UHGV virus genome: UHGV-0187445 | Length of the DNA stretch: 14,700 nucleotides | Direction: 5' to 3' (one strand) | Source of the DNA: a virus | Part shown: piece by piece, positions 1 through 14,274 of the stretch | Layout of the letters: each line of letters starts with the position of its first letter | How positions within the stretch are numbered: position 1 is the first letter of the stretch | Notes under the pieces: model-generated | Told to the model about the DNA's origin: nothing | Seen by the model: the letters and a program-made list of their open reading frames with translations, nothing else | The model's database searches: none | Position numbers and translations under genes: made by a program

Positions 1-122
1 GTCAGCGGCATAACGTCAGTAACGGATGGCGGCCAGTGAAAAATGGTGGCGATATCTGCCACCAGATCGTCAACCGTCAGGCTGTCGGTAAACCGGCAAG
101 CACCGACTTCTTCAACAAAAAA
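1..122 (-). CDS. E': E' extension of the E+E' tail assembly chaperone, copy 1 (partial; reached by -1 frameshift at slippery T TTT TTG, plus-strand 116..122); continues past window start
   Basis: Minus-strand -1 frame downstream of the heptamer is open to position 1 and encodes ...VADIATIFHWPP..., homologous to the copy-2 E' tail (...MADIAVIFHWRP...). Confidence 0.6.
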
Positions 123-379
123 GTGACAACCTCAACCGACATGGCAGTGAGATCTGCCGGGTCCATCTCTGCAATTTCCTGTGCAGTCAGTGCCGGACTG
201 GAGATGCGGGGGATCACGGTCATCATCGCGTTTACATCCATATCCATAATGGCCTGCAGGCGTGTACCGCGCAGCGCACCGGACTGCGGTTTACGCAGCA
301 CAATTTCGGTGATTTCTGTTTTACCGCGCTTGATGGGGGTATCCAGTTGAATGGTCTTTTCAGTCTGCTTATCGCTCAT
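77..379 (-). CDS. E: Phage tail assembly chaperone gpE (P2 E family), copy 1
   Basis: 100 aa ORF directly downstream of tube gene; contains in-frame ACT TTT TTG slippery heptamer near 3' end; position and size as P2 E. Confidence 0.85.
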   Translation of the reverse strand: MSDKQTEKTIQLDTPIKRGKTEITEIVLRKPQSGALRGTRLQAIMDMDVNAMMTVIPRISSPALTAQEIAEMDPADLTAMSVEVVTFLLKKSVLAGLPTA

Positions 380-433
380 TTTGCTGTCCTGTCAATTGGG
401 TTCTGGCGCGGTATCCCGCGCCGTTCAGATATA

Positions 434-949
434 TCAGAGGCCGAGGGCGTTGCGGTGCGCTTCCATCAGGTCCACACCGTCCACAATTTCCACCATGTTG
501 ATAAGGTCCACTTCATAGAGCACCTCACCATTGATGGTCAGCTTCGCGTAGCTGTTGGTACTGGTCACTTTGGTGGTGTTGCTTTCGCCCGTCTTCCACT
601 CGCCGGAATCCACTTCTTTGTGACGTCCACGCACGACAAGCTCCACGGCCTGCACTTCCCCGGTATCGTCACGCTGGATAGAGCCGGTAAAGCGCAGTTG
701 GATGCCATCCACCGTGGATTTGCCCATCTGCTTAAACAGCAGCAGTTCAGTACCACCAATGGAAAATTCTGTGTCCAGCGCACTGTCATCAAGCCCCAGA
801 TCCACATCCACCGCACCCGGCATTCCGCCGCCGCGATACTTCTCATATTTGCGGGTAAATTTCGGCAGCGTCAGCGACTCAACGATCCCCTGCCAGTTGT
901 TCCCGTCGTTAAACAGGTTCAGGTGTTTTAATTTGCGTGGTAAAGCCAT
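434..949 (-). CDS. FII: Phage major tail tube protein (P2 FII family), copy 1
   Basis: 171 aa, MALPRKLK... N-terminus and ...HRNALGL C-terminus typical of P2 FII; immediately downstream of sheath gene. Confidence 0.9.
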   Translation of the reverse strand: MALPRKLKHLNLFNDGNNWQGIVESLTLPKFTRKYEKYRGGGMPGAVDVDLGLDDSALDTEFSIGGTELLLFKQMGKSTVDGIQLRFTGSIQRDDTGEVQAVELVVRGRHKEVDSGEWKTGESNTTKVTSTNSYAKLTINGEVLYEVDLINMVEIVDGVDLMEAHRNALGL

Positions 950-958
950 GTTGTCCCC

Positions 959-2131
959 TTACGCGCTGACCTGGCTGGCGAAATTCACCAGGTACTGATC
1001 GGTGATGCGCTGACGCAGCATCAGGTTTTCAAGTGGCGGCACTGGCGTGTAGTCGTAGTCGATGGTGAGTTTTCCGGCTTTCAGCGTGTCTTTGTCGTTC
1101 ACCGACTCATCCAGCCAGCAATCACCACCAATGAGATAGCCCTGACTGACCAGGCTGCGCATTTTGGCGCGGATGCCCTCGATAATGTCGCGCGCCAGCG
1201 ACGGGTTCAGCGGTTTGTCCACTGCCCACATGTGTGCTTCTGCCATCGTGTCCATCAGCACCTGCGCCGTGCGGGTGTAGTTTTCGAAGGCAAAGAGCGG
1301 GTCATCACTCAGGCAGCGGGAACCCCAGAAGCGGAAACCGTCTTTGCGGATAAGGGTGGTGACGTCGTTCTGGTTCAGCAGTCCAGCATCGGTTGCCGTG
1401 TCCTGCAGATCCCAGAACACATCAGCAGAAATTCCAGTGACACCGTTAACGCCCACATTGGACAGGCTTTTGTGCCATCCGGTCTGCTCGTCAATTTTGG
1501 CGCGCAGACCAAGCGCACGAGCGGTGGCATATGCCGTTGCTTCGGCATTCAGCACCGTGTCCCAGCCAGTAAAGTCAGGCCAGATCAGCATCCCTTCGCG
1601 CTGGCTGAAGTTTTCGCGGTAAGTGATCGCCTCCTGCACTGTCTTGCAGCCATACGCTGACAGGTAAGCAAATCCACGCAGGCTTTGCGCCACGCTCAGC
1701 AACTCAGTAGCCACCGCCTTGGTGTCGTGGCCTGGCACGCCGAGAATGCGCGGTTTAACGCCGAGCTGTGACTGGGCAGATAACAGGGCTTTCATACCTG
1801 TTTTTTTACCTTCAGCAGTCACTGCGCCGATGATATTGGTCGTGGTTTCGTCTTCCGTTTCACCCTGCGGCACACGCACAACAATGGTCACGGGTTTTGC
1901 CTGGTCAGCGATGGCATCCAGCGAACGGGCCAGAGTACCGGACTCACCCGCTTTACCGCTGGCAGTCAGCACATCAGTGATCAGCACGGGTTTATTAAGA
2001 GGAAACATTTTTGCATCGGCATCATCGCCCGTGCAGACCATACCCACGATGGCGGTGCTCACCGTGGTAATAGATCGGGTGCCTTCGTTGACTTCAACAA
2101 CGCGCACCCCGTGGTGGTAATCCTGAGCCAT
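959..2131 (-). CDS. FI: Phage contractile tail sheath protein (P2 FI family), copy 1
   Basis: 390 aa; ...DYHHGV...[13 protein letters not shown]...[12 protein letters not shown]... motifs typical of P2 FI; AGGAGG RBS 8 nt upstream of ATG at 2131. Confidence 0.9.
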
Positions 2132-2207
2132 AGTGGCGAACCTCCTGATTGGATTAGGCTTCGCCCTATGTTGAAGTGATTGTGCCTGACAAACAGCTAA
2201 ACGCAGT

Positions 2208-2225
2208 TGTGTCGTTATTCACACA
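2208..2225 (-). promoter_or_regulatory. TGT-N12-ACA dyad (P2 late-promoter Ogr/Delta-type activator site), candidate P_F of module 1
   Basis: TGTgtcgttattcacACA seen directly; centre about 85 bp upstream of FI(1) ATG. Confidence 0.5.
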
Positions 2226-2273
2226 AAATAACGGTATTTGTCTGCTTGCAGGGATAATCAACATAATGCTGAT

Positions 2274-2840
2274 TCAGGGGGATTCATTGATCTTATTTGC
2301 CGGAAATTTTCTATAAATGGTAGAAACGCCTACATCAAAAATCAGTGCAATACGCTGTCTTGATTCTCCGGCCTCGAGTAAACGCCCAATCTGTGCCCAC
2401 TGTTCGGTGGTCAACTTAGGACGGCGTCCACCTACTCTGCCTTTGGCACGAGCTGCAGCCAGCCCTGCCCTGGTACGTTCAACTATCAGTTCGCGTTCCA
2501 TTTCAGCCAGGGCACCCATGACATGAAAAAAGAAACGGCCCATTGGGGTACTGGTATCAATACTGTCAGTCAGGCTTCTGAAATTCACACCACGCTGGCG
2601 CAACTCTTCTATCAGCGTAACAAGATGCCGCATACTGCGCCCCAACCTGTCCAGCTTCCAGACAACCAGCGTGTCTCCTGCCGATAGTGTCCTGAGTAGT
2701 TTTTTCAGCCCCGGTCTGTCGGACTTAGTGCCACTGATTTTGTCCTCAAAAATCCGCTCACATCCCGCGCAGTTCAGTGCATTACGTTGCAAATCGGTGT
2801 TCTGGTCATTTGTTGACACGCGTACATAGCCAATAAGCAT
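2274..2840 (-). CDS. Serine DNA invertase (Hin/Gin/Pin/Cin family), invertase A
   Basis: 188 aa from ATG at 2840 (AGGGGG RBS 6 nt upstream; ORF track start 2846 is 2 codons further). MLIGYVRVSTNDQ catalytic-serine N-terminus, ...GRFFFHVMGALAEMERELIVERT... and C-terminal HTH region typical of the family. Confidence 0.9.
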   Translation of the reverse strand: MLIGYVRVSTNDQNTDLQRNALNCAGCERIFEDKISGTKSDRPGLKKLLRTLSAGDTLVVWKLDRLGRSMRHLVTLIEELRQRGVNFRSLTDSIDTSTPMGRFFFHVMGALAEMERELIVERTRAGLAAARAKGRVGGRRPKLTTEQWAQIGRLLEAGESRQRIALIFDVGVSTIYRKFPANKINESP

Positions 2841-2867
2841 GATCATCCCCCTGAATAAAAACCGGAG

Positions 2868-3389
2868 ATGATGCCAGTTAGCTGTTACCTCTGCATTTTC
2901 TTAAACGTTGGTTTAGGGGAAGGCTCTGCGCTGCCTGTTGGTGTGCCTGTTCCATGGCCTTCAGCCACACCGCCAACAGGCTGGCTGAAATGCAACGGTG
3001 CGGCTTTTTCTGCTGAAGATTACCCTAATCTGGCAAAGGCTTACCCGACGTTAAAATTGCCTGATTTACGCGGTGAGTTTATTCGTGGCTGGGATGGTGG
3101 AAAGGGAGTGGATAGTGGGCGAACTCTGCTTTCAGCACAAGGAGATGCTATCCGAAACATTACCGGGGTGGTTGGCTACAGTTCAATTGGCGATTCACAA
3201 GGGTTATTAGGATACGTGTCAGGGGCCTTTTCGGCTTCGGAGTCAAAAGCTCCCGCATTAAGTGGTGCATCAGCATCCGGGTATCAACGCTCCCTGTATG
3301 CGAATTTTAATGCTTCAGCCGTTGTCCCAACCGCAAATGAGAACCGCCCACGTAACATTGCCTTTAATTATATTGTGAGGGCTGCATAA
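2868..3389 (+). CDS. Tail fibre variable C-terminal cassette (tail-collar-type domain), lacking a constant N-terminal fibre region
   Basis: 173 aa; ...PVGVPVPWPS...GWLKCNGAAFSAEDYPNLAKAYP...LPDLRGEFIRGWD... and C-terminal ...NIAFNYIVRAA resemble Mu S / P1 S-type fibre C-termini; in-frame stop only 3 codons upstream of ATG (2856..2858). Confidence 0.75.
   Translation: MMPVSCYLCIFLNVGLGEGSALPVGVPVPWPSATPPTGWLKCNGAAFSAEDYPNLAKAYPTLKLPDLRGEFIRGWDGGKGVDSGRTLLSAQGDAIRNITGVVGYSSIGDSQGLLGYVSGAFSASESKAPALSGASASGYQRSLYANFNASAVVPTANENRPRNIAFNYIVRAA
2896..2921. repeat. hix/gix-like 26 bp recombination site, left (TTTTCTTAAACG TT GGTTTAGGGGAA; core TT at 2908..2909)
   Basis: Half-sites show 8/12 dyad symmetry around a 2 bp core; resembles Hin-family crossover sites; 55 bp from invertase A start. 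Confidence 0.65.
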
Positions 3390-3991
3390 TGGATAACGCT
3401 GTATTAAATAGCGAGATTATTGCCACGAAGGCAGGGAATATTACCGTCTATAACTATGATGGTGAAATACGGGAATATATTTCCACTTCAAATGAATATC
3501 TTGCCGTTGGTGTTGGTATCCCGGCATATTCCTGTTTAGATTCACCAGGCACATATAAGGCTGGTTATGCTATCTGCCGTTCTGCAGATTTTAACTCATG
3601 GGAATATGTGCCAGACCATCGCGGTGAAATCGTCTATAACACCGAAACGGGAGAAGCCAAAGAAATCACAACTCCGGGTGATTACCCTGAAAATACAACC
3701 ACTATCGCCCCGTTAACGCCATACGATAAATGGGATGGTGAGAAATGGGTGACCGATACTGAGGCACAGCACGGCGCAGCAGTAGATGCAGCAGAAGCAC
3801 AGCGCCAGTCGCTGATTGATACTGCAATGGCCTCCATCAGTCTGATTCAACTGAAATTACAGGCCGGACGGAAGCTGACGCAGGCAGAAACAACCCGCCT
3901 TAACACTGTGCTGGATTACATTGACGTGGTGACGGCAACAGATACCAGCACAGCGCCGGACGTCATCTGGCCTGAACTGCCGGAGGCGTAG
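3389..3991 (+). CDS. Tail fibre assembly chaperone (Tfa/U family)
   Basis: 200 aa; start overlaps upstream stop (TAATG); C-terminal ...DVIWPELPEA motif typical of Tfa proteins. Confidence 0.8.
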   Translation: MDNAVLNSEIIATKAGNITVYNYDGEIREYISTSNEYLAVGVGIPAYSCLDSPGTYKAGYAICRSADFNSWEYVPDHRGEIVYNTETGEAKEITTPGDYPENTTTIAPLTPYDKWDGEKWVTDTEAQHGAAVDAAEAQRQSLIDTAMASISLIQLKLQAGRKLTQAETTRLNTVLDYIDVVTATDTSTAPDVIWPELPEA

Positions 3992-4403
3992 GCCATTCAA
4001 TATCTGGCGCACCGGAAGTATCGACCAGTTCCAGTGCGTACAGATAATCCAGCCACAAATTATATTGCGCCAGTTCCTCACCTTTCAGGCGACAAATCGC
4101 CGCTTTACCAGCCCATTGTCTACTGTTCATATAATCGTTGGCCTGATTAATCAATTGCTGCTTTTTAGTTTCGACTGATGCAATTTGTTCTTCACGTGTT
4201 GGCGGTGGAACATCTGCCCATGCTGGCATTCCATCGTCTCCGGTAATTCTGTACTTACCGTCAGGCGGCGTATCATGGAAATATTCCCTGAAAATAGCTT
4301 CGTCTATATCCACGCCTTTACCTTCGGGCCATTGGCCTTTTGCAGCGTAAACAGACTGGAGGGCATAAGGGTACGCCAGATTATCAACATACAAATATTT
4401 CAT
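3963..4403 (-). CDS. Alternative tail fibre assembly chaperone (Tfa/U' family)
   Basis: 146 aa; C-terminal ...DIEWPTPP... motif; convergent with and overlapping the other tfa by 29 bp. Confidence 0.8.
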   Translation of the reverse strand: MKYLYVDNLAYPYALQSVYAAKGQWPEGKGVDIDEAIFREYFHDTPPDGKYRITGDDGMPAWADVPPPTREEQIASVETKKQQLINQANDYMNSRQWAGKAAICRLKGEELAQYNLWLDYLYALELVDTSGAPDIEWPTPPAVQAR

Positions 4404-4405
4404 AA

Positions 4406-4735
4406 TTAACGCCCTTTCGCGTAGAAGGCTCCACCTTCAAAGCCATAGTTACAATGAGCAACGAAACCTGTTTTCGTCCAGTTAGTTGCGCCCCACATAT
4501 TCCCACCACCAAAACCGCCGTCATATACAATCACTACGTCTGGCTCCTGCGTAAAAGGAATGGTGAAAGTCACATTTGTAGATACCGCCGCGGCGTTATT
4601 CGGGAAATTAATTCTTCCCCACTGTTCAATTGAACCATCAGGCAATTTTTGCCAGCCAGATCCTGATGAATAAGCTGACATATCAGGTATCTGATTTTCC
4701 CCTGTTCCCACATTCCGTTTTGCCGCTTCTCCCAA
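4406..4735 (-). CDS. Alternative tail fibre variable C-terminal cassette (no ATG; ORF-track start is TTG; frame open only to 4759)
   Basis: 109 aa C-terminal glycine-rich fibre tip; N-terminus (..CIFKNVGLGE..) is encoded by the right crossover site and matches the left cassette's CIFLNVGLGE; stop at 4760..4762 immediately outside. Confidence 0.7.
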   Translation of the reverse strand: MGEAAKRNVGTGENQIPDMSAYSSGSGWQKLPDGSIEQWGRINFPNNAAAVSTNVTFTIPFTQEPDVVIVYDGGFGGGNMWGATNWTKTGFVAHCNYGFEGGAFYAKGR

Positions 4736-4752
4736 ACCAACGTTTTTGAAAA
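4727..4752. repeat. hix/gix-like 26 bp recombination site, right (inverted copy; core AA at 4739..4740 on plus strand)
   Basis: Reverse complement reads TTTTCAAAAACG TT GGTTTGGGAGAA, matching the left site at 22 of 26 positions; 54 bp from invertase B start. Confidence 0.65.
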
Positions 4753-4806
4753 TGCATAATTATTAGCCGAATGGCATGATTTATCGTTTTAAAGGAATGA
4801 AAAACC

Positions 4807-5388
4807 ATGCTTATTGGATATGTGCGCGTATCAACAAATGACCAGAACACGGCTTTGCAACGTGATGCGCTTGAGCGGTCAGGATGTGAGCTAATTTTTG
4901 AAGATAAAATGAGCGGGAGAACAGCGGAAAGGCCAGGGCTTAAAAAATTACTAAAGCGCCTTTCTCCAGAAGATACGCTTGTTGTCTGGAAGCTGGATCG
5001 TCTTGGGCGGAGTATGCGGAACTTGGTCATTCTGGTGGAGGAACTAAAGCAACGTTCCGTGAACTTCCGCAGCCTGACTGACAGTATTGATACCTCAACA
5101 CCAATGGGGCGTTTCTTTTTTCATGTTATGGGAGCACTGGCAGAGATGGAGAGAGAATTGATTGTCGAGCGTACGCGTGCAGGACTGGTGGCCGCTCGCG
5201 CGCAGGGAAGGATCGGCGGTAGACGTCCAAAACTAACACCAGAACAATGGGCGCAGGCGGGTAGGTTAATAGCGGCAGGGGAATCGCGCCGGAGGGTTGC
5301 CATAATTTATGATGTTGGGATATCTACGCTTTACAAAAAATTCCCAGCGACCAGAGATAAGAATTCCGGCACGCATGGCCGGTTATAA
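4807..5388 (+). CDS. Serine DNA invertase (Hin/Gin/Pin/Cin family), invertase B
   Basis: 193 aa; AAGGAA RBS; about 80% amino-acid identity by eye to invertase A, in opposite orientation. Confidence 0.9.
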   Translation: MLIGYVRVSTNDQNTALQRDALERSGCELIFEDKMSGRTAERPGLKKLLKRLSPEDTLVVWKLDRLGRSMRNLVILVEELKQRSVNFRSLTDSIDTSTPMGRFFFHVMGALAEMERELIVERTRAGLVAARAQGRIGGRRPKLTPEQWAQAGRLIAAGESRRRVAIIYDVGISTLYKKFPATRDKNSGTHGRL

Positions 5389-5472
5389 CCGTGCTGGCCG
5401 TGTGTATCGAGTACGGTCACTTTTAACGGTGCTGTAGCACGGTCAGTTATGGTGGTGTATTACGGAAGACGA

Positions 5473-5496
5473 AGCGGGCAATGGCCCGCTTTTCTT
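5473..5496 (+). terminator. Rho-independent terminator hairpin (AGCGGGC-aatg-GCCCGCT followed by TTTTCTT), overlapping the stop codon of U on the other strand
   Basis: 7 bp GC-rich stem plus T-tract seen directly; lies between convergent invertase B and U. Confidence 0.6.
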
Positions 5497-5944
5497 ATAT
5501 CGAAAGGTTGGTTTTCACCAGAGAGAAGAGATCGTCGGTAGTGGTTTCAGCCAGCTTTTCCCGTATGTCCTCGCTTACCCGTTTCAGGTTGAGCGTGAAA
5601 TCAATTTTCTTTGCCTTCCCGTCCTTAAAAAACTCCGTCCGGTTTTGCGTGATCTGCTCAATTACATACATGCCGTAGATCCTGCCCGTGCCTTCTATCA
5701 GGGGCCACGGGCGCCCGGAAAAAGCCATAGTTTCCAGCATGACAAGCGACACATCACCGCCGCTTATTTCGGGGTACAGCGTGCCGCTGAGTACGAACGG
5801 TTCTTCATCTGCGCCGATGAACTGATAGCGCGGGGATTTCCCCACGCGATCGTTTTTGACGTGCCGCCAGGAGTTGGTTTTATTCGCACTCTGGTAAGGT
5901 GTGGTTTGCAGTGAAAAGGGGAACATCCCCAGAATCATCATCAT
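5495..5944 (-). CDS. U: Phage tail protein gpU (P2 U family), module 2
   Basis: 149 aa; MMMILGMF... N-terminus and ...WPLIEGTGRIYGMYVIEQ... typical of P2 U; directly downstream of T. Confidence 0.85.
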   Translation of the reverse strand: MMMILGMFPFSLQTTPYQSANKTNSWRHVKNDRVGKSPRYQFIGADEEPFVLSGTLYPEISGGDVSLVMLETMAFSGRPWPLIEGTGRIYGMYVIEQITQNRTEFFKDGKAKKIDFTLNLKRVSEDIREKLAETTTDDLFSLVKTNLSI

Positions 5945-5953
5945 GATATTGCC

Positions 5954-8881
5954 TTAGACGTGATCGGTCAGTTGGGAGCGCTTGCGCCGGTCGGCCTGTT
6001 GCTTCGCTAACGCAAGTTCTTCGCGCACGCGCCTGATAATGGTTTCTTCATCCAGTTTCTGGCCGCTAAAGTCGAAGTTAAGGTTATATACATCGCCACC
6101 CGGAGCAGGCATCAGCGCAGCGACGGAAGCCGCAGACGGAGACGCCGAAACAGGCATCCGTGCGGCGGGCTTCTCAACCTGCCAAGGCGTAACGGAAGCG
6201 ATCAGCGATCCGGCCTGCTGCGTCACCCAATCGGTAAGGGATGGTAGCTGGCGCTGCGCCTGCTTAAGCGGTTCCGAATATCCGCCACGGATCGGGATAT
6301 AGGGCTGCTTATTCTTGAAGACAATTTCGCCGGGGCCGTCTTTCTTCTCCGTGGTATTGGTGGCGATCTTGTCCAGGCTGTTGCTCATCTTCGGCACGAT
6401 GTTGGCCGGGCCTTTGAGCGAGTTAATCAGGTTGTCCTGTTTCTTCTGCTCATCGGTTTTCTTTTTCTCTTCGGCTTTTTTGCTTTCCTTCGCGACTGCC
6501 TGCACGTCACCGGAAAAGGCGTTAACCCGGTCTGCCAGATTGTTTACCGCTTCCGGCGTCATTTGCTGCGCAACCTGCTGCGCTGCTTTCGCTGCGTCGG
6601 GAATGGCGCCCAGCTTTTCCAGAATCCAGCCCAGCCCTTTGGCTACGGCCTGAATGGGAAGCGTCAGCGCGCTGATTGCGGCCCCAACCACCTTACCGAA
6701 GGTTTCCCCTGCACTGGTGCAGGATGCCAGCGCTTCACTGGAAAACTGGATCGGCTCCAGTAGTTTGGTAAACCATTCCCAGACGCCGCTGATCGCGTTG
6801 CCGATACTGTTAAAAATCGGGGCCAGTGGTGCGAATACGGCGTTAAACGACTGCGTTATTGGTTGAAGGCCAGCCATCAGACCGGTAAAGAAGCCGCTGA
6901 AAAATGCCTTAATCGGTTGCCAGAATTTAATTACGGCCACTGCTACCGCAGCAAAGAGAGCAATCAGCCCCCAGACGGGCGCAGAAATGCCAGCCAGTAG
7001 CGTGATAAGCGGGCCGAATACCATGCGACCGGCGCTTAACAATGCCTGCATAGGCGAGCCAGCAAGCCACTGGAACGCACCACCCAGGCGCATTACTCCG
7101 CCAGTCAGACGCGCTATTCCTCCTTCCCCGGCCAGCGAGGTGAAGCTGAGGCGAACAAGTGCCATTGGGCCAAGTACTGCGCCGATGGACAGCATCAGGC
7201 CACCCATGACAACCAGCAAAGCGCCTATGGCTGCGGTGACTTTCATGATTGAACCAACCAGCGCTGGGTTTGCCTCCACCCAGCGGCGGACGCTGCCAAC
7301 CACCTTACTGACGGTAAGCATGATATCCATCAGCGGATCGCGAAGGGTTTCACCTGCTGAACTGAATGCGTTAACCGCGCCGGTTTTGGTCAGTTGCCAT
7401 TGAGCAGAAAGGGAAGCTTTATTGATATCAGACTCCCTATTCATGGAACCTTTAGCGGCTGCGCCCTGCGTCAGTTCTATCTGGCGGCGTAGTTCGGGCA
7501 GGTTGTTGGCAAGTTTCTGCGCATCATCGCCGAACTCTTTGCCAAAAATCTGGGTAAGGTTGGCTACCTGCTGATCCGGGGCCAGTTTTTTGGACGCTTC
7601 CAGCACTGAAATGATTGTGCCCATCGCGTCCACTGACATGCTCTTCTGAACTTTTTCGGCGCTGAGGCCGAGGGCGTCCAGACCCTGCATAAAGTTTTTG
7701 CCCTGAACCGTAGCGATTGAGAGTTCGCGCACCATTGCATTGGTGGCGCTGGCGGCAACTTCGGCAGGGGTGCCGAGCGTCAGAAAGGTGGAACCCAGCG
7801 CGGCGGCTTGCTTGTAATCCAGTTGGCTGGCAAGCCCACCAACGCGCTGGAGTACGTCGATAATATCGGAGCCTTTCGACTTCGCGTTATCGTCCAGGTA
7901 GTTTATGGCGTCGCCTAACTGTTCAATATTCTGGGTGGGGATTTTATACAGCCCGGCAATTTTCCCCAGGCTTTCAGAAAGCTGATCGGCGGGCAGTTCA
8001 AAGGCTACCGAAGCTTTTGCCGCCATGCTGGCAAAAGACAGCAGATCGGCTTTTTGCTTTTGCCAGGGATCATCGCTGTTTGCGACGCCCATACGCGCGC
8101 CGCCTTCGACCAGGGCGGCATAGTCAACAGCACCGTTAGCCATTGGCAGCTTTTCGCTGGCATCCATGATCGCCCGCTGCATTTCTTCATACTGCGGGGT
8201 GCGGTTGCCGCTGTCGTCACGTAAGCCATTTACCTGTTTGGCTACGCCCTTCATCGCGTCTTCGAGGCTGCTGTAGGATTTCACCGCAGCGGCGACAGGT
8301 ACGAGTGTTGCCGCCCCTACTGCGGCGGTTTTCATTCCCCCGCTCATCATCTTTTCGCCGGTTTCTTTGGCGCGGCTGTAACGGGCCTGCGCCTGGTTAA
8401 CAGCGTCAAGCCGTCGTTGCTGTTCAGCAAGCTGGCGGTTGTATTGCGCGGTGCGCTGGTTGATCTGTTCCGTCGCCCGGCTGGCGCTGCTGATCGCAAT
8501 GCCTTCGCTGTAGAAGCTGGCCCGCAACTGGTTAAGCTGCGTCTGCTCGCCTTTCTGCTGCTGGGTTAACTGGCGAATGGCTGCACGTTGCTGATTGAGG
8601 GCGGCAACTTGTTCGGCGCTGCGCTGGCGTAACGGGCCATAAGCCGCCGCCATTTGCCGGGCCTGTTCTTTCGCCTGGGCCAGTTGTTCGGTGGTTTTTT
8701 TATTGGCTGCGGTGAGGCGGTCAAAGCTGGTTGCCTGACGCTCAAGCCCTTTAATGCTGGTTTTAGTCTGGTTGATTTGAGACGCCAACGCGGCGGCACT
8801 CTGGCGCGCCGCGTTGACAGGGCGGGACATATTATTCAGGGCGCTGAATGCCACCCTGATATTTAAATTGCGGTCTGCCAT
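5954..8881 (-). CDS. T: Phage tail tape measure protein (P2 T family), module 2
   Basis: 975 aa; N-terminal coiled-coil-rich region, central hydrophobic segments, position between E' and U. Confidence 0.9.
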   Translation of the reverse strand: MADRNLNIRVAFSALNNMSRPVNAARQSAAALASQINQTKTSIKGLERQATSFDRLTAANKKTTEQLAQAKEQARQMAAAYGPLRQRSAEQVAALNQQRAAIRQLTQQQKGEQTQLNQLRASFYSEGIAISSASRATEQINQRTAQYNRQLAEQQRRLDAVNQAQARYSRAKETGEKMMSGGMKTAAVGAATLVPVAAAVKSYSSLEDAMKGVAKQVNGLRDDSGNRTPQYEEMQRAIMDASEKLPMANGAVDYAALVEGGARMGVANSDDPWQKQKADLLSFASMAAKASVAFELPADQLSESLGKIAGLYKIPTQNIEQLGDAINYLDDNAKSKGSDIIDVLQRVGGLASQLDYKQAAALGSTFLTLGTPAEVAASATNAMVRELSIATVQGKNFMQGLDALGLSAEKVQKSMSVDAMGTIISVLEASKKLAPDQQVANLTQIFGKEFGDDAQKLANNLPELRRQIELTQGAAAKGSMNRESDINKASLSAQWQLTKTGAVNAFSSAGETLRDPLMDIMLTVSKVVGSVRRWVEANPALVGSIMKVTAAIGALLVVMGGLMLSIGAVLGPMALVRLSFTSLAGEGGIARLTGGVMRLGGAFQWLAGSPMQALLSAGRMVFGPLITLLAGISAPVWGLIALFAAVAVAVIKFWQPIKAFFSGFFTGLMAGLQPITQSFNAVFAPLAPIFNSIGNAISGVWEWFTKLLEPIQFSSEALASCTSAGETFGKVVGAAISALTLPIQAVAKGLGWILEKLGAIPDAAKAAQQVAQQMTPEAVNNLADRVNAFSGDVQAVAKESKKAEEKKKTDEQKKQDNLINSLKGPANIVPKMSNSLDKIATNTTEKKDGPGEIVFKNKQPYIPIRGGYSEPLKQAQRQLPSLTDWVTQQAGSLIASVTPWQVEKPAARMPVSASPSAASVAALMPAPGGDVYNLNFDFSGQKLDEETIIRRVREELALAKQQADRRKRSQLTDHV

Positions 8882-9082
8882 TTAGTGATCTCCACCACTG
8901 CGCGCAGCCGCCTGATCACGCCATAACAGTATTTCCTGTACCGTCATGGCGTCCATCTCTACCGGCCGCCAGTGGAATATGACGGCGATATCTGCCATCA
9001 GGTCTTCTATGCGTTCGCAGGGGCATCGGATGATTCGTTGCCCGTATCCGTCGCGGTCAGATCCGAAGAGGGTTGCAAAAAA
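8882..9082 (-). CDS. E': E' extension of E+E' fusion, module 2 (-1 programmed frameshift at T TTT TTG, plus-strand 9076..9082); full E+E' spans 8882..9342
   Basis: Hand translation of the -1 frame from the heptamer gives a stop-free 66-codon tail (FATLFGSDRDGYGQRIIRCPCERIEDLMADIAVIFHWRPVEMDAMTVQEILLWRDQAAARSGGDH) ending at TAA 8882..8884, directly abutting the T start codon (TAAATG). Confidence 0.75.
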   Translation of the reverse strand, partial: FFATLFGSDRDGYGQRIIRCPCERIEDLMADIAVIFHWRPVEMDAMTVQEILLWRDQAAARSGGDH

Positions 9083-9342
9083 TCAACCACCGCGTTGGCT
9101 AGCTGGCAAAAATCCCAGGTATCCATACGGGCAATCTCATCGGCGGTTAGTGCCGGAGCGGTAACGCGGGGCAGCAGAATAACCAGCGCGTCATAGTTGG
9201 AAGTCAGCACGTCATAGGCTTTTAAGCCGCGCAGTGATCCAGCCTGTTTAAGCACGGAAGTGATCGCCACTTCGGTGATTTTGGTCTTACCGCGCGTAAT
9301 AGGGGCGGTAAGAATAACGGTGTTTTCTTTGGTTTTGCTCAT
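9007..9342 (-). CDS. E: Phage tail assembly chaperone gpE, module 2
   Basis: 111 aa; in-frame GAT TTT TTG heptamer 25 codons before the stop; downstream of tube gene. Confidence 0.85.
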   Translation of the reverse strand: MSKTKENTVILTAPITRGKTKITEVAITSVLKQAGSLRGLKAYDVLTSNYDALVILLPRVTAPALTADEIARMDTWDFCQLANAVVDFLQPSSDLTATDTGNESSDAPANA

Positions 9343-9356
9343 GGTGCCGGGTTTCC

Positions 9357-9872
9357 TTATAGGCCGATGTTAGCGCGGTGTTTTTCCAGCACATCCACAC
9401 CGGCAACTTTGTAGATCATGTTGAGCACATCAACTTCGATAATCTCTTCGCCGTTGATGGTCAGCTTGTAATAGGTGTTTTTCAGGGTGTACTTATGCGA
9501 AGTGTCATCCCCGACTTTTGCCGAACCGGGATCCAGTTCAGTGAAGCGGCCACGCGTCTGGATTTCGCACGGTACAGCGTCGCCGGTTGCGTCGTCCTGA
9601 TAGGAGCCAGCAAAACGTGTTTGCATCCCGTCCGCAGTGGTAACGCCCCATTTTTTCAGCAATCCGGCATCCAGACCGCCAAGCGTGATATCCATATCCA
9701 GGGCGCCAGCGTCGAAGCCAAGATCCACCGCAACCGAACCTGGCATACCACCCGCCTGGTAGTCTTCGGTTTTTTTGGTGAGTTTGGCGGGGGTGATTTC
9801 CGGCACCATGCCGAAGTAGTTATCCCCGTCAAAGAACATATTGAAATATTTGAGTTTCTTAGGCAGTGCCAT
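9357..9872 (-). CDS. FII: Phage major tail tube protein (P2 FII family), module 2
   Basis: 171 aa; MALPKKLKYFNMF... and ...HRANIGL; same length as module-1 FII but highly diverged. Confidence 0.9.
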   Translation of the reverse strand: MALPKKLKYFNMFFDGDNYFGMVPEITPAKLTKKTEDYQAGGMPGSVAVDLGFDAGALDMDITLGGLDAGLLKKWGVTTADGMQTRFAGSYQDDATGDAVPCEIQTRGRFTELDPGSAKVGDDTSHKYTLKNTYYKLTINGEEIIEVDVLNMIYKVAGVDVLEKHRANIGL

Positions 9873-9884
9873 AAGCGCCCCCGG

Positions 9885-11078
9885 TTAGTTATTCACTGCG
9901 CTGGAAAACGTAGCGAAATATTCGTCGGTGAACTCCTGTACCAGGCTGAGATTTTCCAGCGGTGGAACAGGGGTGTAGTTGTACTTAATGGTCAGTTGAC
10001 CATTGCGCAGGGTTTCCGAGGTATTCGGTTCCGGGTCATACCAGCAGCGGGCGCCCAGCAGCTTGCCAGCCGTCACGTATGAGGTCAGCTTCTTATTGAT
10101 GCCGTCCACAATGTCCTTTACCAGCGACGGGGTAAGCGGTTTATCAACATAGGCGAAATGGGCTTCGGCGACGGTATCCGCAACTATCTGCGCGGTTCGG
10201 GTATAGCTTTCGAAGATATACGTTTCCGCGTCGCAGGTACGCGATCCCCAGATGCGGTAGCCGTCCTGCTTGATCAGCGTGGTAACGCCTGCTGCGTTCA
10301 GTTCGTCGGCGTCGGTATCGGTGCCCTGCAACGTGAAATAGATATCCCGATCCATCCCCAGCACGTTATTAACGGGCACGTTGGAAATGGTTTTATGCCA
10401 GCCCTGCGTTGCGTCGATTTTGGCTCGCATCCCAACAGCATGGGCACCCACGGGCACGGTGGCATTAGCCCCGGCGTTGGTGTCGTAGCAGATGAAATTA
10501 GGCCAGATAACCATCATTTCACGCTGGGAGAATTGCTCGCGGTATTCCTTCACTTCGGCGATTGTGTTGCAACCGTTCGCTGCCACGTAAGCAAACGCGC
10601 GCAGCTTTTCGGCAATGACGCCGAGTTGTGCGGCTACCGCTTCCGTATCAAGCCCTGGAACAGCCAGTACACGCGGGCGCACACCTACGCGCATTTCGGC
10701 AGACAGCAGCGCGTACATGCCGGTAAAGCGCCCGTTTGCATCGGTGCCGCCAATAACCAGTTGATCCTGGGTCTGTGCGGTGCCGCCTTCTGGCGGTTCG
10801 ATATTTGCAGCATCAGCAACGCGGATCACAATGGTTTGCGGGCTGGTCTGGTCTGAAATCGCTTTCAGGGTGGTAAACAGGGTGCCGGTTTTACCTGCCT
10901 TGCCCAGCATGTTAGCCACGCGGGTAATCAGTACAGGGGTATCCAGCGGGAACGCTGTTTCGTCCGCATCATCAGCGGTGCAGACAACGCCGATCACCGC
11001 CGAATCAATGTCGGTGATCATCGTGCTAAGGTCGGTGGTTTCCGTGACGGTTACACCGTGATGGTAGTTAGTGGCCAT
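9885..11078 (-). CDS. FI: Phage contractile tail sheath protein (P2 FI family), module 2
   Basis: 397 aa; ...NYHHGV...TTLIKQDGYRIWG...[12 protein letters not shown]...; roughly half the residues identical to module-1 FI by eye. Confidence 0.9.
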   Translation of the reverse strand: MATNYHHGVTVTETTDLSTMITDIDSAVIGVVCTADDADETAFPLDTPVLITRVANMLGKAGKTGTLFTTLKAISDQTSPQTIVIRVADAANIEPPEGGTAQTQDQLVIGGTDANGRFTGMYALLSAEMRVGVRPRVLAVPGLDTEAVAAQLGVIAEKLRAFAYVAANGCNTIAEVKEYREQFSQREMMVIWPNFICYDTNAGANATVPVGAHAVGMRAKIDATQGWHKTISNVPVNNVLGMDRDIYFTLQGTDTDADELNAAGVTTLIKQDGYRIWGSRTCDAETYIFESYTRTAQIVADTVAEAHFAYVDKPLTPSLVKDIVDGINKKLTSYVTAGKLLGARCWYDPEPNTSETLRNGQLTIKYNYTPVPPLENLSLVQEFTDEYFATFSSAVNN

Positions 11079-11150
11079 GTATTTGCCTCGCCAGTTTAAT
11101 GACTGCGAATATCATTGCGGCAATGGCGGGCCGATGCGATGGATAAGGGT

Positions 11151-11168
11151 TGTCAGCAACCTGCAACA
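11151..11168. promoter_or_regulatory. TGT-N12-ACA dyad (P2 late-promoter activator site) between divergent FI(2) and D
   Basis: TGTcagcaacctgcaACA seen directly; centre about 81 bp upstream of FI(2) ATG and about 77 bp upstream of D ATG. Confidence 0.5.
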
Positions 11169-11235
11169 ATGACGGGGCGTTGTTCATGCGCGCGCGCGTG
11201 GCGACGATGTACCCCATCATGATGAAGGGGTTGAT

Positions 11236-12354
11236 ATGGACACGACAGAAAACCGATATTCGCCGCGCCCGGCGTTCAGTATTGAGATTGAAGGTAAGCA
11301 GCTTACGGCGCTGGATAACCGGCTGATCTCCCTTTCCCTGACAGATAACCGGGGCTTTGAAGCGGACACGCTGGATCTGACTCTGGATGATGCAGACGGG
11401 CAGGTAGCCTTACCATCACGCGGCGCAAAGATATCGGTGGCGCTGGGCTGGGATAATGATCCATTGGTTTTTAAGGGCGTGTATACGGTTGACGAGATCG
11501 GACACTCTGGCCCGCCTGACCAGCTAACGATCAGTGCCAGAAGCGCAGATTTCCGCGATACCTTTAACGTGAAGAGGGAATATAGCTGGCACGATATTAC
11601 CGTGGGGGATGTGGTTGCCAGCATTGCCAGCCGTTACGATCTGCGTGCGGGCGTCAGCGAAGAACTGGCGAAGATTGAGATAGATCACGCCGATCAGACG
11701 AGTGAATCAGATATCAGCTTCTTAACGCGCATGGCCGAAATGCTGGGCGCGGTGGCAACCATTAAAAACGGTATGCTTCTGTTTATCACGCCGGGCAAGG
11801 GAGTAACGCAGAGCGGCAAGCCGCTGCCGGTGATCGAGATAGTCCGGTCAAGCGGTGATAAACATCGGTTTAACGTAGCTGACCGCGACGCGTACACGGG
11901 CGTAACTGCATACTGGCTTGATCTCAACTTTGGCAAGAAACCATCCACTACCGTGAAGAAAACCACCCGCAGGCGACGAACCAGCCAGGCCAAAAAGAAA
12001 GAACCCGCATCAAGCAAAAAAGAAGGGGATTATCTGGCCGGGGCCGAAGGCAACGTTTTTGTTATCCGTAAAACCTTCAAGACGGAAAAGGCGGCAAAGC
12101 GTGCCGCAGCGGCTAAGTGGCGGGAGTTGCAGCGCGGGGCGGCTACGTTCAGCATCACCCTGGCGCGTGGGCGCGCGGATTTGTACCCGGAACAGCCAGC
12201 CAGTGTTTATGGGTTTAAGTCCACGATCGACAGTGGAAGCTGGACGATAACACGGTGCGTTCACGATGTTGGCGGGGGAGGGTTTACCACGTCGCTGGAA
12301 CTGGAAGTAAAAATCGACGACTGGACAGCGGAGAGTGACGATTCAACGTCTTAA
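11236..12354 (+). CDS. D: Phage late control / tail protein gpD (P2 D family)
   Basis: 372 aa; ...DLTLDDADGQVALPSRGAKISVALGW...GPPDQLTISARSADFRDTFNVKREYSW...DAYTGVTAYW... typical of P2 D; GAAGGGG RBS. Confidence 0.85.
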   Translation: MDTTENRYSPRPAFSIEIEGKQLTALDNRLISLSLTDNRGFEADTLDLTLDDADGQVALPSRGAKISVALGWDNDPLVFKGVYTVDEIGHSGPPDQLTISARSADFRDTFNVKREYSWHDITVGDVVASIASRYDLRAGVSEELAKIEIDHADQTSESDISFLTRMAEMLGAVATIKNGMLLFITPGKGVTQSGKPLPVIEIVRSSGDKHRFNVADRDAYTGVTAYWLDLNFGKKPSTTVKKTTRRRRTSQAKKKEPASSKKEGDYLAGAEGNVFVIRKTFKTEKAAKRAAAAKWRELQRGAATFSITLARGRADLYPEQPASVYGFKSTIDSGSWTITRCVHDVGGGGFTTSLELEVKIDDWTAESDDSTS

Positions 12355-12402
12355 GCGTTATACTTGCGTTGATATTAACCAGTCATGAAAGGAGGCCCGC
12401 GT

Positions 12403-12645
12403 ATGGCAATGCGCTGTCCTCGCTGCCGTGCTATAGCAAAAACCAGAACCAGCGTTGAGCTGAGTTTGCTTGTACGGCGCAGCTATCACCAGTGTCAAAA
12501 CATGTTATGCGGGTACTGTTTCACCAGCATGACGGAAATAGACGGTTCATTAAACCAGACCCAGCCAGCGCCCGGCGCGATGGTGCCACAAGAAGCTTTT
12601 CCACGAAGTCACCACGGCGAAGATCAGCTATCGCTGGCACTGTAA
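12403..12645 (+). CDS. ogr: Late-gene transcriptional activator, Ogr/Delta zinc-finger family
   Basis: 80 aa from ATG at 12403 (AAAGGAGG RBS 7 nt upstream); CPRC ... HQCQNMLC Cys4 motif matching the Ogr ...YHQCQN.C signature; follows D as in P2. Confidence 0.8.
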   Translation: MAMRCPRCRAIAKTRTSVELSLLVRRSYHQCQNMLCGYCFTSMTEIDGSLNQTQPAPGAMVPQEAFPRSHHGEDQLSLAL

Positions 12646-12647
12646 AA

Positions 12648-12676
12648 ATAACCCGCCTACATGGCGGGTTTCTTAT
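12648..12676 (+). terminator. Rho-independent terminator after ogr (ACCCGCC-tacat-GGCGGGT then TTCTTAT)
   Basis: Hairpin plus U-rich tract seen directly, 5 nt after ogr stop. Confidence 0.6.
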
Positions 12677-12734
12677 ACCTGTTACCCCTGATATTATTTT
12701 TCAACTTTCACAGTGGTGCTTAAAAGGTAGGGAT

Positions 12735-13118
12735 ATGAAAAAGTTAATCATGGTACTTGCGCTGTTTAGCCTTGTTGGATGTAAGCCCGGTGCTGATAAA
12801 GCGGTTGAGTTGGGGCAGAAAGAAGTTGCTTCAAGTATGCGCGATCCTGATAGCGCGAAATTCAGGTATGTACGTTTTGTTCAGAAAGACGAAGCTGCTG
12901 ATGGTGCTGTTGTCGGTTACGTCTGCGGGCAGGTAAACGCCAAAAATGCGTTTGGTGCGTATGCTGGTTTTGCACCTTTTGAAATGGAATTGTCGATGAA
13001 GTCGAAGGGGTTCTTCTCAAAAGGGGTAACTTACTCTGTATTTAACAAGCAACTGTATTCAGACCCAGGACAGGTAAACATGGCCGAATATACGAAGAAG
13101 TGCGGCCCTGATCAATAG
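12735..13118 (+). CDS. Small lipoprotein of unknown function (signal peptide with lipobox LVGC); candidate prophage cargo
   Basis: 127 aa from ATG at 12735 (GGTAGGG RBS); MKKLIMVLALFSLVGC lipoprotein signal; no family recognised by eye. Confidence 0.65.
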   Translation: MKKLIMVLALFSLVGCKPGADKAVELGQKEVASSMRDPDSAKFRYVRFVQKDEAADGAVVGYVCGQVNAKNAFGAYAGFAPFEMELSMKSKGFFSKGVTYSVFNKQLYSDPGQVNMAEYTKKCGPDQ

Positions 13119-13145
13119 GTTAAGTTTTAGGCAAATGTTTGAATA

Positions 13146-13170
13146 GACCGGGCAGAAGCCCGGCTTTTTT
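13146..13170 (+). terminator. Rho-independent terminator after lipoprotein gene (GACCGGGC-agaa-GCCCGGC then TTTTTT)
   Basis: Perfect GC-rich hairpin plus T6 seen directly. Confidence 0.7.
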
Positions 13171-13261
13171 CTGTCGAAGTGTAGTCAAAATGTAGACGAA
13201 GATTAGAATAAATCCTTTTATTCCATTGTGTTACTGGCTGGATTTCTTCACCATCCCTGTC

Positions 13262-13290
13262 TTCCCCCACATGATGTGGGGGTTTTTTTT
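13262..13290 (+). terminator. Strong stand-alone rho-independent terminator (CCCCCAC-atgat-GTGGGGG then T8); no ORF upstream
   Basis: Hairpin plus T8 seen directly, about 90 bp after the previous terminator and about 80 bp before fieF. Confidence 0.65.
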
Positions 13291-13371
13291 ATCCTCAATT
13301 TGCCTGCTGCTTAATGCATTGCAGATGATTTGCTTCCGTTATACTAGCGTCAGTTGATAGCGGGAGTATTT

Positions 13372-14274
13372 ATGAATCAATCTTATGGACGGCTGGTCAG
13401 TCGGGCGGCGATTGCTGCGACGGCGATGGCTTCGTTGCTATTGCTGATTAAAATTTTTGCATGGTGGTATACCGGGTCGGTGAGTATTCTCGCCGCGCTG
13501 GTGGATTCGCTGGTGGATATCGGCGCGTCGTTGACGAATTTACTGGTGGTGCGATATTCCCTGCAACCTGCCGACGATAATCACTCGTTTGGTCACGGTA
13601 AAGCTGAGTCCCTCGCGGCGCTGGCGCAAAGTATGTTTATCTCCGGTTCGGCACTATTCCTGTTTTTGACGGGTATTCAACATCTGATATCTCCAACACC
13701 GATGACAGATCCAGGCGTTGGGGTTATCGTGACAATTGTGGCGCTAATTTGTACGATTATCCTTGTCTCGTTTCAGCGTTGGGTGGTGCGGCGGACGCAA
13801 AGCCAGGCGGTGCGGGCTGATATGCTACATTACCAGTCTGATGTTATGATGAACGGTGCAATTCTGCTGGCGCTGGGGTTGTCCTGGTACGGCTGGCATC
13901 GCGCCGATGCTCTGTTTGCATTGGGAATCGGCATCTATATTTTATATAGCGCGTTACGCATGGGATATGAGGCGGTACAGTCATTACTGGATCGCGCATT
14001 GCCTGATGAGGAACGGCAAGAAATTATTGATATCGTGACTTCCTGGCCGGGTGTTAGCGGCGCTCACGATCTTCGCACGCGGCAGTCAGGGCCGACCCGC
14101 TTTATTCAGATTCATTTGGAAATGGAAGACTCTCTGCCTTTGGTTCAGGCACATATGGTGGCGGATCAGGTAGAGCAGGCTATTTTACGGCGTTTTCCGG
14201 GATCGGATGTGATTATCCATCAGGACCCCTGTTCCGTCGTACCCAGGGAGGGTAAACGGTCTATGCTTTCATAA
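13372..14274 (+). CDS. fieF: Ferrous-iron/zinc efflux cation diffusion facilitator FieF (YiiP)
   Basis: 300 aa from [13 protein letters not shown]...; recognised as E. coli FieF; ORF-track start at 13354 is an upstream in-frame extension. Confidence 0.93.

Follow-up and report, generated by a model that had tools for sequence, protein, structure and literature searches.

Does a single stretch of Escherichia coli DNA carry the same programmed -1 ribosomal frameshift twice, and if so, why twice? The stretch in question (hereafter the window) is the 14,700-nucleotide UHGV virus genome UHGV-0187445, whose minus strand holds two P2-like tail gene sets, here called modules 1 and 2, each with a homologue of the phage P2 tail gene E (E1 and E2). 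The sequence-only reading of the window, made without database searches, had proposed that both genes are extended by a -1 frameshift into a second product, E'. Such a feature is already known as the E/E+E' pair in the FETUD tail operon of phage P2, in which a 91-residue E and a 142-residue E+E' arise via a -1 shift at TTTTTTG, an arrangement conserved in P2-like phages (PMC3091744, citing Christie 2002 and Xu 2004). Based on the position of the genes, their homology to P2 gpE and gpE', the presence of the heptamer, its alignment with the P2 slip codons and its conservation among relatives, all of which support the earlier proposal, we suggest with high confidence that both modules encode a P2-type tail assembly chaperone pair with a programmed -1 frameshift. 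The doubling of the frameshift reflects the presence of two P2-like prophage arms next to each other.

Slip sites and -1 frames of the two E genes

The elements concerned are the following; relatives used for comparison are cited by their L numbers, and PGAP denotes the Prokaryotic Genome Annotation Pipeline.

77..379, minus strand: E1, tail assembly chaperone gene of module 1, gpE homologue of 100 residues (open reading frame; Pfam Phage_TAC_7, 1e-18; PHROG 103, 1.5e-42)
116..122, minus strand: slippery heptamer T TTT TTG of module 1 (X XXY YYZ register; alignment column of the P2 site)
1..117, minus strand: predicted E1' coding sequence in the -1 frame, with 38 of 57 tail residues within the window (Pfam Phage_P2_GpE, 6.7e-07 on the partial tail)
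9007..9342, minus strand: E2, divergent gpE homologue of 111 residues in module 2 (PHROG 103, 5.4e-32; aligns with P2 E; hypothetical according to PGAP)
9076..9082, minus strand: slippery heptamer T TTT TTG of module 2 (kept in all eight close relatives, L004-L011)
8882..9077, minus strand: predicted E2' coding sequence in the -1 frame, a 64-residue tail plus the stop codon TAA at 8884..8882 (Pfam Phage_P2_GpE, 4.8e-16; PHROG 1756; third-position bias)

Reading of the letters and translation by script agree that each E gene contains an in-frame T TTT TTG, at 122..116 and 9082..9076, as had been claimed. At both sites a zero-frame codon ends with the first T, the heptamer is offset from the start codon by 2 modulo 3 as in P2, and the zero-frame codons are ACT TTT TTG in E1 and GAT TTT TTG in E2. 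The distance to the E stop, earlier put at 15 to 25 codons, is in fact 12 codons in E1 and 22 in E2. When the fusion proteins are aligned, the slip codons for F and L fall in one column, within VVGFL in P2, whose slip site is established by experiment, VVTFL in E1 and VVDFL in E2. The window as a whole contains seven such heptamers on its two strands, against 4.4 +/- 1.9 in shuffled sequences, and is thus not enriched for them, so that the evidence rests on the position and register of the two sites and not on their number.

The -1 frame of module 2 opens exactly at 9082, since a TGA in that frame lies immediately upstream, and it remains open for 66 codons to the TAA at 8884..8882; the ATG of the tape-measure gene T2 follows at 8881 with no spacer, and both coordinates had been given correctly in the sequence-only reading. 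For module 1, the -1 frame has no stop before the window edge, as that reading had also noted, and the 38 tail residues visible there are a homologous peptide with a match to Phage_P2_GpE; the complete 57-residue E1' tail was taken from phage Cartapus and from the prophage L095. The fusions predicted on this basis are 145 residues long for E1 (completed from L095) and 153 for E2, compared with 142 in P2, and their junction peptides would begin with VVTFLVEEVGAC... and VVDFLATLFGSDR..., respectively.

The end of E' and the start of T are tightly packed in every case, as TAAATG in the Senquatrovirus-like clade to which module 2 belongs, and with an 11-nucleotide overlap in another clade. The TAAATG junction itself is found in seven of the eight close relatives of module 2 (L004-L011), with L010 having TAAAATG. 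In P2 and in module 1 the two genes overlap by 8 nucleotides (ATGAGTAA in P2, ATGAGTGA in module 1). As a separate observation, the minus strand at 44..64 carries a terminator-like hairpin, GGUGGCAGAUAUCGCCACC followed by U5, inside a conserved motif of E1' (LVADIATIFHW); no such hairpin is present at the corresponding codons of module 2, and it is probably a coincidence of coding.

Homology, conservation and the search for stimulators

Sequence-profile searches link both parts of the predicted fusions to their P2 counterparts. The -1 tails match Pfam PF06528 (Phage_P2_GpE) with 58.4 bits in module 2 and 29.1 bits for the partial tail of module 1, against a cut-off of 23, and E1 matches PF10109 (Phage_TAC_7) with 67.5 bits. 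The P2 reference record (NC_001895) has a gene E and a joined coding sequence (CDS) for E+E', which shares the amino terminus of gpE via a -1 frameshift whose site is annotated. Both parts of the fusions are homologous to those of P2, and over the whole fusion E2 is 42% identical to E1 and likewise to P2. The E genes of both modules sit between a tail tube gene recognized by TIGR01611 and a tape-measure gene. The order FI-FII-E/E'-T-U and the packing of the E' end on the T start are as in P2, and so is the heptamer TTTTTTG, which occupies the F-L codons that align with those of P2. The differences from P2 are of detail: the E' stop of module 2 abuts the T start in place of the 8-nucleotide overlap of P2 and module 1, the zero-frame tail past the slip site is 22 codons long in E2 as against 6 in P2, E2' has an insertion of 8 residues, and the FI..U block of the Senquatrovirus type is inverted relative to D-ogr. 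A sequence search of the PDB for solved structures gave no relative, and NCBIfam offers no model for E or E+E'.

We then examined relatives of the two loci by means of an alignment-based scan of IMG/VR, which yielded 80 loci of 36-100% identity; a locus was counted if it had a heptamer in register, preceded by no fewer than 60 zero-frame codons and followed by 40 or more open -1 codons. An in-register slippery heptamer followed by an open -1 frame occurs at the homologous place in 77 of these loci, the heptamer being TTTTTTG in 45, TTTTTTA in 2, AAATTTT in 15 and CCCTTTC in 15. The three exceptions comprise two loci in which a lengthened T-run fuses E and E' in one frame (L012 at 1734..1744 and L014 at 1742..1750, with T7G or T8G) and one with an insertion or deletion (L013, at about 1701) that puts E' into the zero frame after a stop; such changes represent either natural variation in run length or errors in the sequencing of homopolymers. 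Across the region that encodes E' only, comparison of module 2 with five relatives shows 6 of 7, 6 of 12, 11 of 16, 11 of 16 and 13 of 18 differences to lie at third positions of the -1 frame, a bias which indicates that this frame is under purifying selection.

Some points weigh against the proposed assignment. E2 scores 23.1 bits on Phage_TAC_7, beneath the 25-bit cut-off, although it still matches PHROG 103 (5.4e-32) and aligns with P2 E; the window edge cuts off the tail of E1'; and the E+E' fusion at these two loci is predicted from sequence. Further, a conserved downstream RNA stimulator was not found in the folds of module 1, module 2 and P2, whose z-scores are -2.1, -0.7 and +0.3, respectively. 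Module 1 has a single modest hairpin 9 nucleotides downstream of its heptamer; a conserved hairpin or pseudoknot 5-9 nucleotides past the heptamer, as in dnaX, is lacking in these folds, and the frameshift sites gave no match to an Rfam family. The literature likewise describes P2-type sites as having no downstream structure (PMC3091744). Upstream, both modules and the P2 clade have a Shine-Dalgarno-like GAGGT, GGTGG or AGGTGG 2-5 nucleotides before the heptamer; the element has no counterpart in several other clades and is confounded with conserved K/E-V-V codons. Its limitation to some clades leaves no basis for predicting frameshift efficiency.

Presumed mechanism and other routes to E'

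In light of the work on P2 and on the G/GT proteins of phage lambda, we infer that slippage occurs at both sites, and by the same analogy infer its rate and the chaperone roles of the products. Most ribosomes would read E to its own stop and yield gpE of 100 or 111 residues, while a minority would slip back by one nucleotide on T TTT TTG with tRNA-Phe and tRNA-Leu in the P and A sites. The slipped ribosomes would go on in the -1 frame to make gpE+E' of 145 or 153 residues, terminating at the start of the tape-measure gene T or overlapping it. Judging by the experiments with P2 (P2 record; PMC3091744), the fusion would be produced in a set proportion and would be essential to tail assembly. The shared amino-terminal domain may coat the tape-measure protein, and the E' domain may recruit the tail tube protein, so that a fixed ratio of E to E+E' would thereby be written into the mRNA. 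P2 reportedly shifts frame at a rate of about 10%, and a rate of similar order would be expected at the two sites here. P2 tail proteins reportedly have no detectable sequence similarity to those of lambda. The likeness to G/GT lies in the location between the tube and tape-measure genes, in the two products that share an amino terminus and result from a -1 slip close to where the first open reading frame ends, and in the presumed mechanism, in which the chaperone binds the tape measure and its extension recruits the tube protein; lambda differs in its slip site, G GGA AAG, and in its non-contractile tail (Levin 1993; Xu, Hendrix & Duda 2004, 2013, 2014; mechanism described and literature reviewed in PMC5009743).

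An alternative that needs no frameshift is the independent translation of E' from an internal start codon, ATG 8998 in module 2 or the equivalent codon of module 1. Public annotation would seem to speak for it: RefSeq and GenBank records carry separate E' open reading frames of 38 or 39 residues, PGAP and other gene callers give E' as a 'GpE family phage tail protein' of 21-39 residues, and across the records that we inspected (L001, L002, L084, L085-L094 and L105) E' is a free gene of 38/39, 24 or 21 residues or is missed altogether. Yet this very discordance among the gene callers, which place E' at 38, 24 or 21 residues or make no call, suggests that a real start is absent. The first 26 codons of the -1 open reading frame of module 2 contain no ATG, GTG or TTG, the first ATG being that at 8998, ahead of which a good Shine-Dalgarno sequence was not found, and the equivalent codon in module 1 is GTG. 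Moreover, the homology to PHROG 1756 spans residues 95-151 of the fusion, reaching upstream of ATG 8998 and nearly to the heptamer, and the first Met is closely preceded by a conserved (I/V)(E/D)DL motif. In P2 itself, E' has been shown to arise by extension of E (P2 record; PMC3091744). We hence consider an internal start very improbable and retain the E+E' fusion as the product of the -1 frame.

A second alternative places the shift at the level of RNA, with RNA polymerase stuttering on the six T residues and adding one U in some transcripts, from which E+E' would be made by ordinary translation. There is a homopolymer run at the slip site, and the T7G and T8G runs of L012 and L014, which encode a one-frame fusion, show that its length varies at least in sequence data. 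In bacteria, productive transcriptional slippage generally takes runs of about 8-9 A or T. Such slippage is unlikely here because the run has only six T and because 30 relatives carry the non-homopolymeric AAATTTT or CCCTTTC, classic heptamers for tandem slippage on the ribosome; the strict X XXY YYZ register is, besides, a requirement of the ribosome and not of the polymerase. We accordingly give polymerase stuttering as little credence as the internal start. Least probable of all is that both the heptamers and the open -1 frames persist here as functionless relics of inheritance, with the tail arms lying in rearranged, non-inducible prophage remnants and never being expressed: the arms are joined back to back and baseplate, fibre-shaft and head genes were not found between them, so that neither arm is in a contiguous complete prophage within the window, but the tail open reading frames are all intact and 99-100% identical to prophages of other strains, and the objection addresses expression in this host and not the identity of the signal.

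With ribosomal slippage as the favored route to E', the annotation of such loci can be improved. The slip sites of modules 2 and 1 are shared with phages SEN4/SEN5 (Senquatrovirus) and Cartapus (Elveevirus), respectively, for which GenBank gives E' as a separate small open reading frame ('hypothetical protein' or 'GpE tail protein') and not as part of a fusion. E of the Senquatrovirus type is itself labelled 'hypothetical protein', the Pfam TAC_7 model missing it by 2 bits, and among the inspected records a joined E+E' CDS is annotated in none except that of P2 (NC_001895). Loci of this kind are best annotated with E+E' as one joined CDS read by ribosomal slippage. The biological weight of the finding is small, as it concerns the textbook tail-chaperone frameshift of P2-like phages; the intact slip sites show that each tail arm is a copy of a functional phage module and has not decayed.

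Origin of the two modules and the site that joins them

The window is part of the E. coli chromosome adjoining fieF (13354..14274), and some part of it is matched in all 5426 complete E. coli genomes. The tail genes around E1 and E2 are as follows.

434..949, minus strand: FII1, major tail tube gene that immediately precedes E1 (TIGR01611, 3.1e-49)
959..2131, minus strand: FI1, tail sheath gene of module 1 (annotated Cartapus homologues; Pfam sheath domains on the L095 gene of identical length)
5495..5944, minus strand: U2, tail gene downstream of T2 (Pfam Phage_P2_GpU, 4.7e-39)
5954..8881, minus strand: T2, tape-measure gene, 975 residues (Pfam PhageMin_Tail, 4.5e-22; ATG directly after the E2' stop)
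9357..9872, minus strand: FII2, major tail tube gene that immediately precedes E2 (TIGR01611, 4.5e-47)
9885..11078, minus strand: FI2, sheath gene of the module 2 tail (annotated in E. coli 0H26 and SEN5; Pfam sheath domains)

The tape-measure gene of module 1, T1, lies just past the window edge and was read in the identical prophage L095, and the genes D (11236..12354) and ogr (12385..12645) of module 2 are on the plus strand.

Identity comparisons reveal that the two modules, which the sequence-only reading had described as diverged, did not diverge in place and instead derive from two different genera of Peduoviridae. The window from 1 to about 2914 is Elveevirus-like, with identities of 96.6% and 98.9% to phages Cartapus and 500465-1, respectively, and a prophage of E. 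coli O25b:H4 (CP015085; L095) is identical to it in the stretches compared (2001..2914 and 1..379); the E1 protein is identical to E of both Cartapus and L095. From about 2908 to 13293 the window is Senquatrovirus-like, with 94% DNA identity to the isolated Salmonella phages SEN4/SEN5, and is 99.4-99.9% identical to prophages that adjoin fieF in other E. coli strains; the exact T2 protein was found in 763 index blocks. These origins bear on the further claim that retention of the mechanism in both modules reflects selection rather than decay. The open reading frames are indeed undecayed and have the lengths seen in viable phages, which upholds one half of the claim; as the modules belong to two genera and are 99-100% identical to prophages of other strains, the selection documented here is that acting in the phage lineages and not in this genome, where recent acquisition may suffice to explain their retention.

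A related observation concerns the O25b:H4 strain, in which both the chromosome (CP015085) and a 29.5 kb 'plasmid' (CP015088.1; L097) carry an Elveevirus-type phage. The tail open reading frames of the L097 copy are broken in many places (sheath, E, T and D are split), which gives it the look of a phage genome, excised or replicating, that was assembled with many errors.

Between the two modules are two serine invertase genes facing outward, inv1 (2846..2274, minus strand) and inv2 (4807..5388, plus strand). They flank a segment of about 1.85 kb of the invertible type, encoding a fibre tip and tfa and bounded by inverted 26-bp hix/gix-like sites; the constant part of the fibre gene, encoding the fibre shaft, was not found on either side of this segment. 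The two sites are:

2896..2921: left crossover site, TTTTCTTAAACG TT GGTTTAGGGGAA
4727..4752: right crossover site, TTCTCCCAAACC AA CGTTTTTGAAAA

Prophages with the exact inv1 protein have zero mismatches to the window up to 2914 and diverge beyond it, and the Senquatrovirus-type prophages L087 and L093 match the window from 2908 on with 99.9% identity. The identity that ends at 2914 and that which begins at 2908 together place the switch between the two parents within 2908..2914, from the central dinucleotide (2908-2909) of the left site, whose TT is common to both parental sites. Distant references had instead pointed to a switch at the right crossover site (4727..4752), which was ruled out in favor of the left site by the closer L087, L093 and L095.

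A joint of this form is the footprint expected of an invertase-catalyzed exchange between sites of two prophages. We entertain, at roughly even odds, the possibility that two Peduoviridae prophages of different genera recombined by means of a phage serine invertase at their tail-fibre crossover sites, leaving the hybrid site at 2896..2921 and two complete 'right arms' fused back to back. If true, this would imply that recombination of the Gin/Pin type between prophages had inverted or deleted part of the chromosome. Prophages with such invertases have been described to exchange fibre segments in a study of ST131 (bioRxiv 10.1101/2022.05.07.487787). The alternative is that the hybrid joint is an assembly chimera. 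An exact 46-mer across the joint has no match in collections of viral, metagenome and species-representative genomes, a 121-nucleotide query has no full-length match of at least 96% among the 5426 complete E. coli genomes, and the joint context was not found in any of 20 contigs with an exact copy of the T2 or inv1 protein.

A further peculiarity of the Senquatrovirus-type arm is that its FI-FII-E-E'-T-U block is inverted with respect to the P2 order and lies between an invertase gene and D-ogr, which are on the opposite strand. This layout (5495..12645 in the window) is the natural arrangement of packaged SEN4/SEN5 genomes, and occurs likewise in L105 (SEN5) and L001 (E. coli 0H26). The breakpoint of the inverted block next to the invertase gene hints at how this layout originated.

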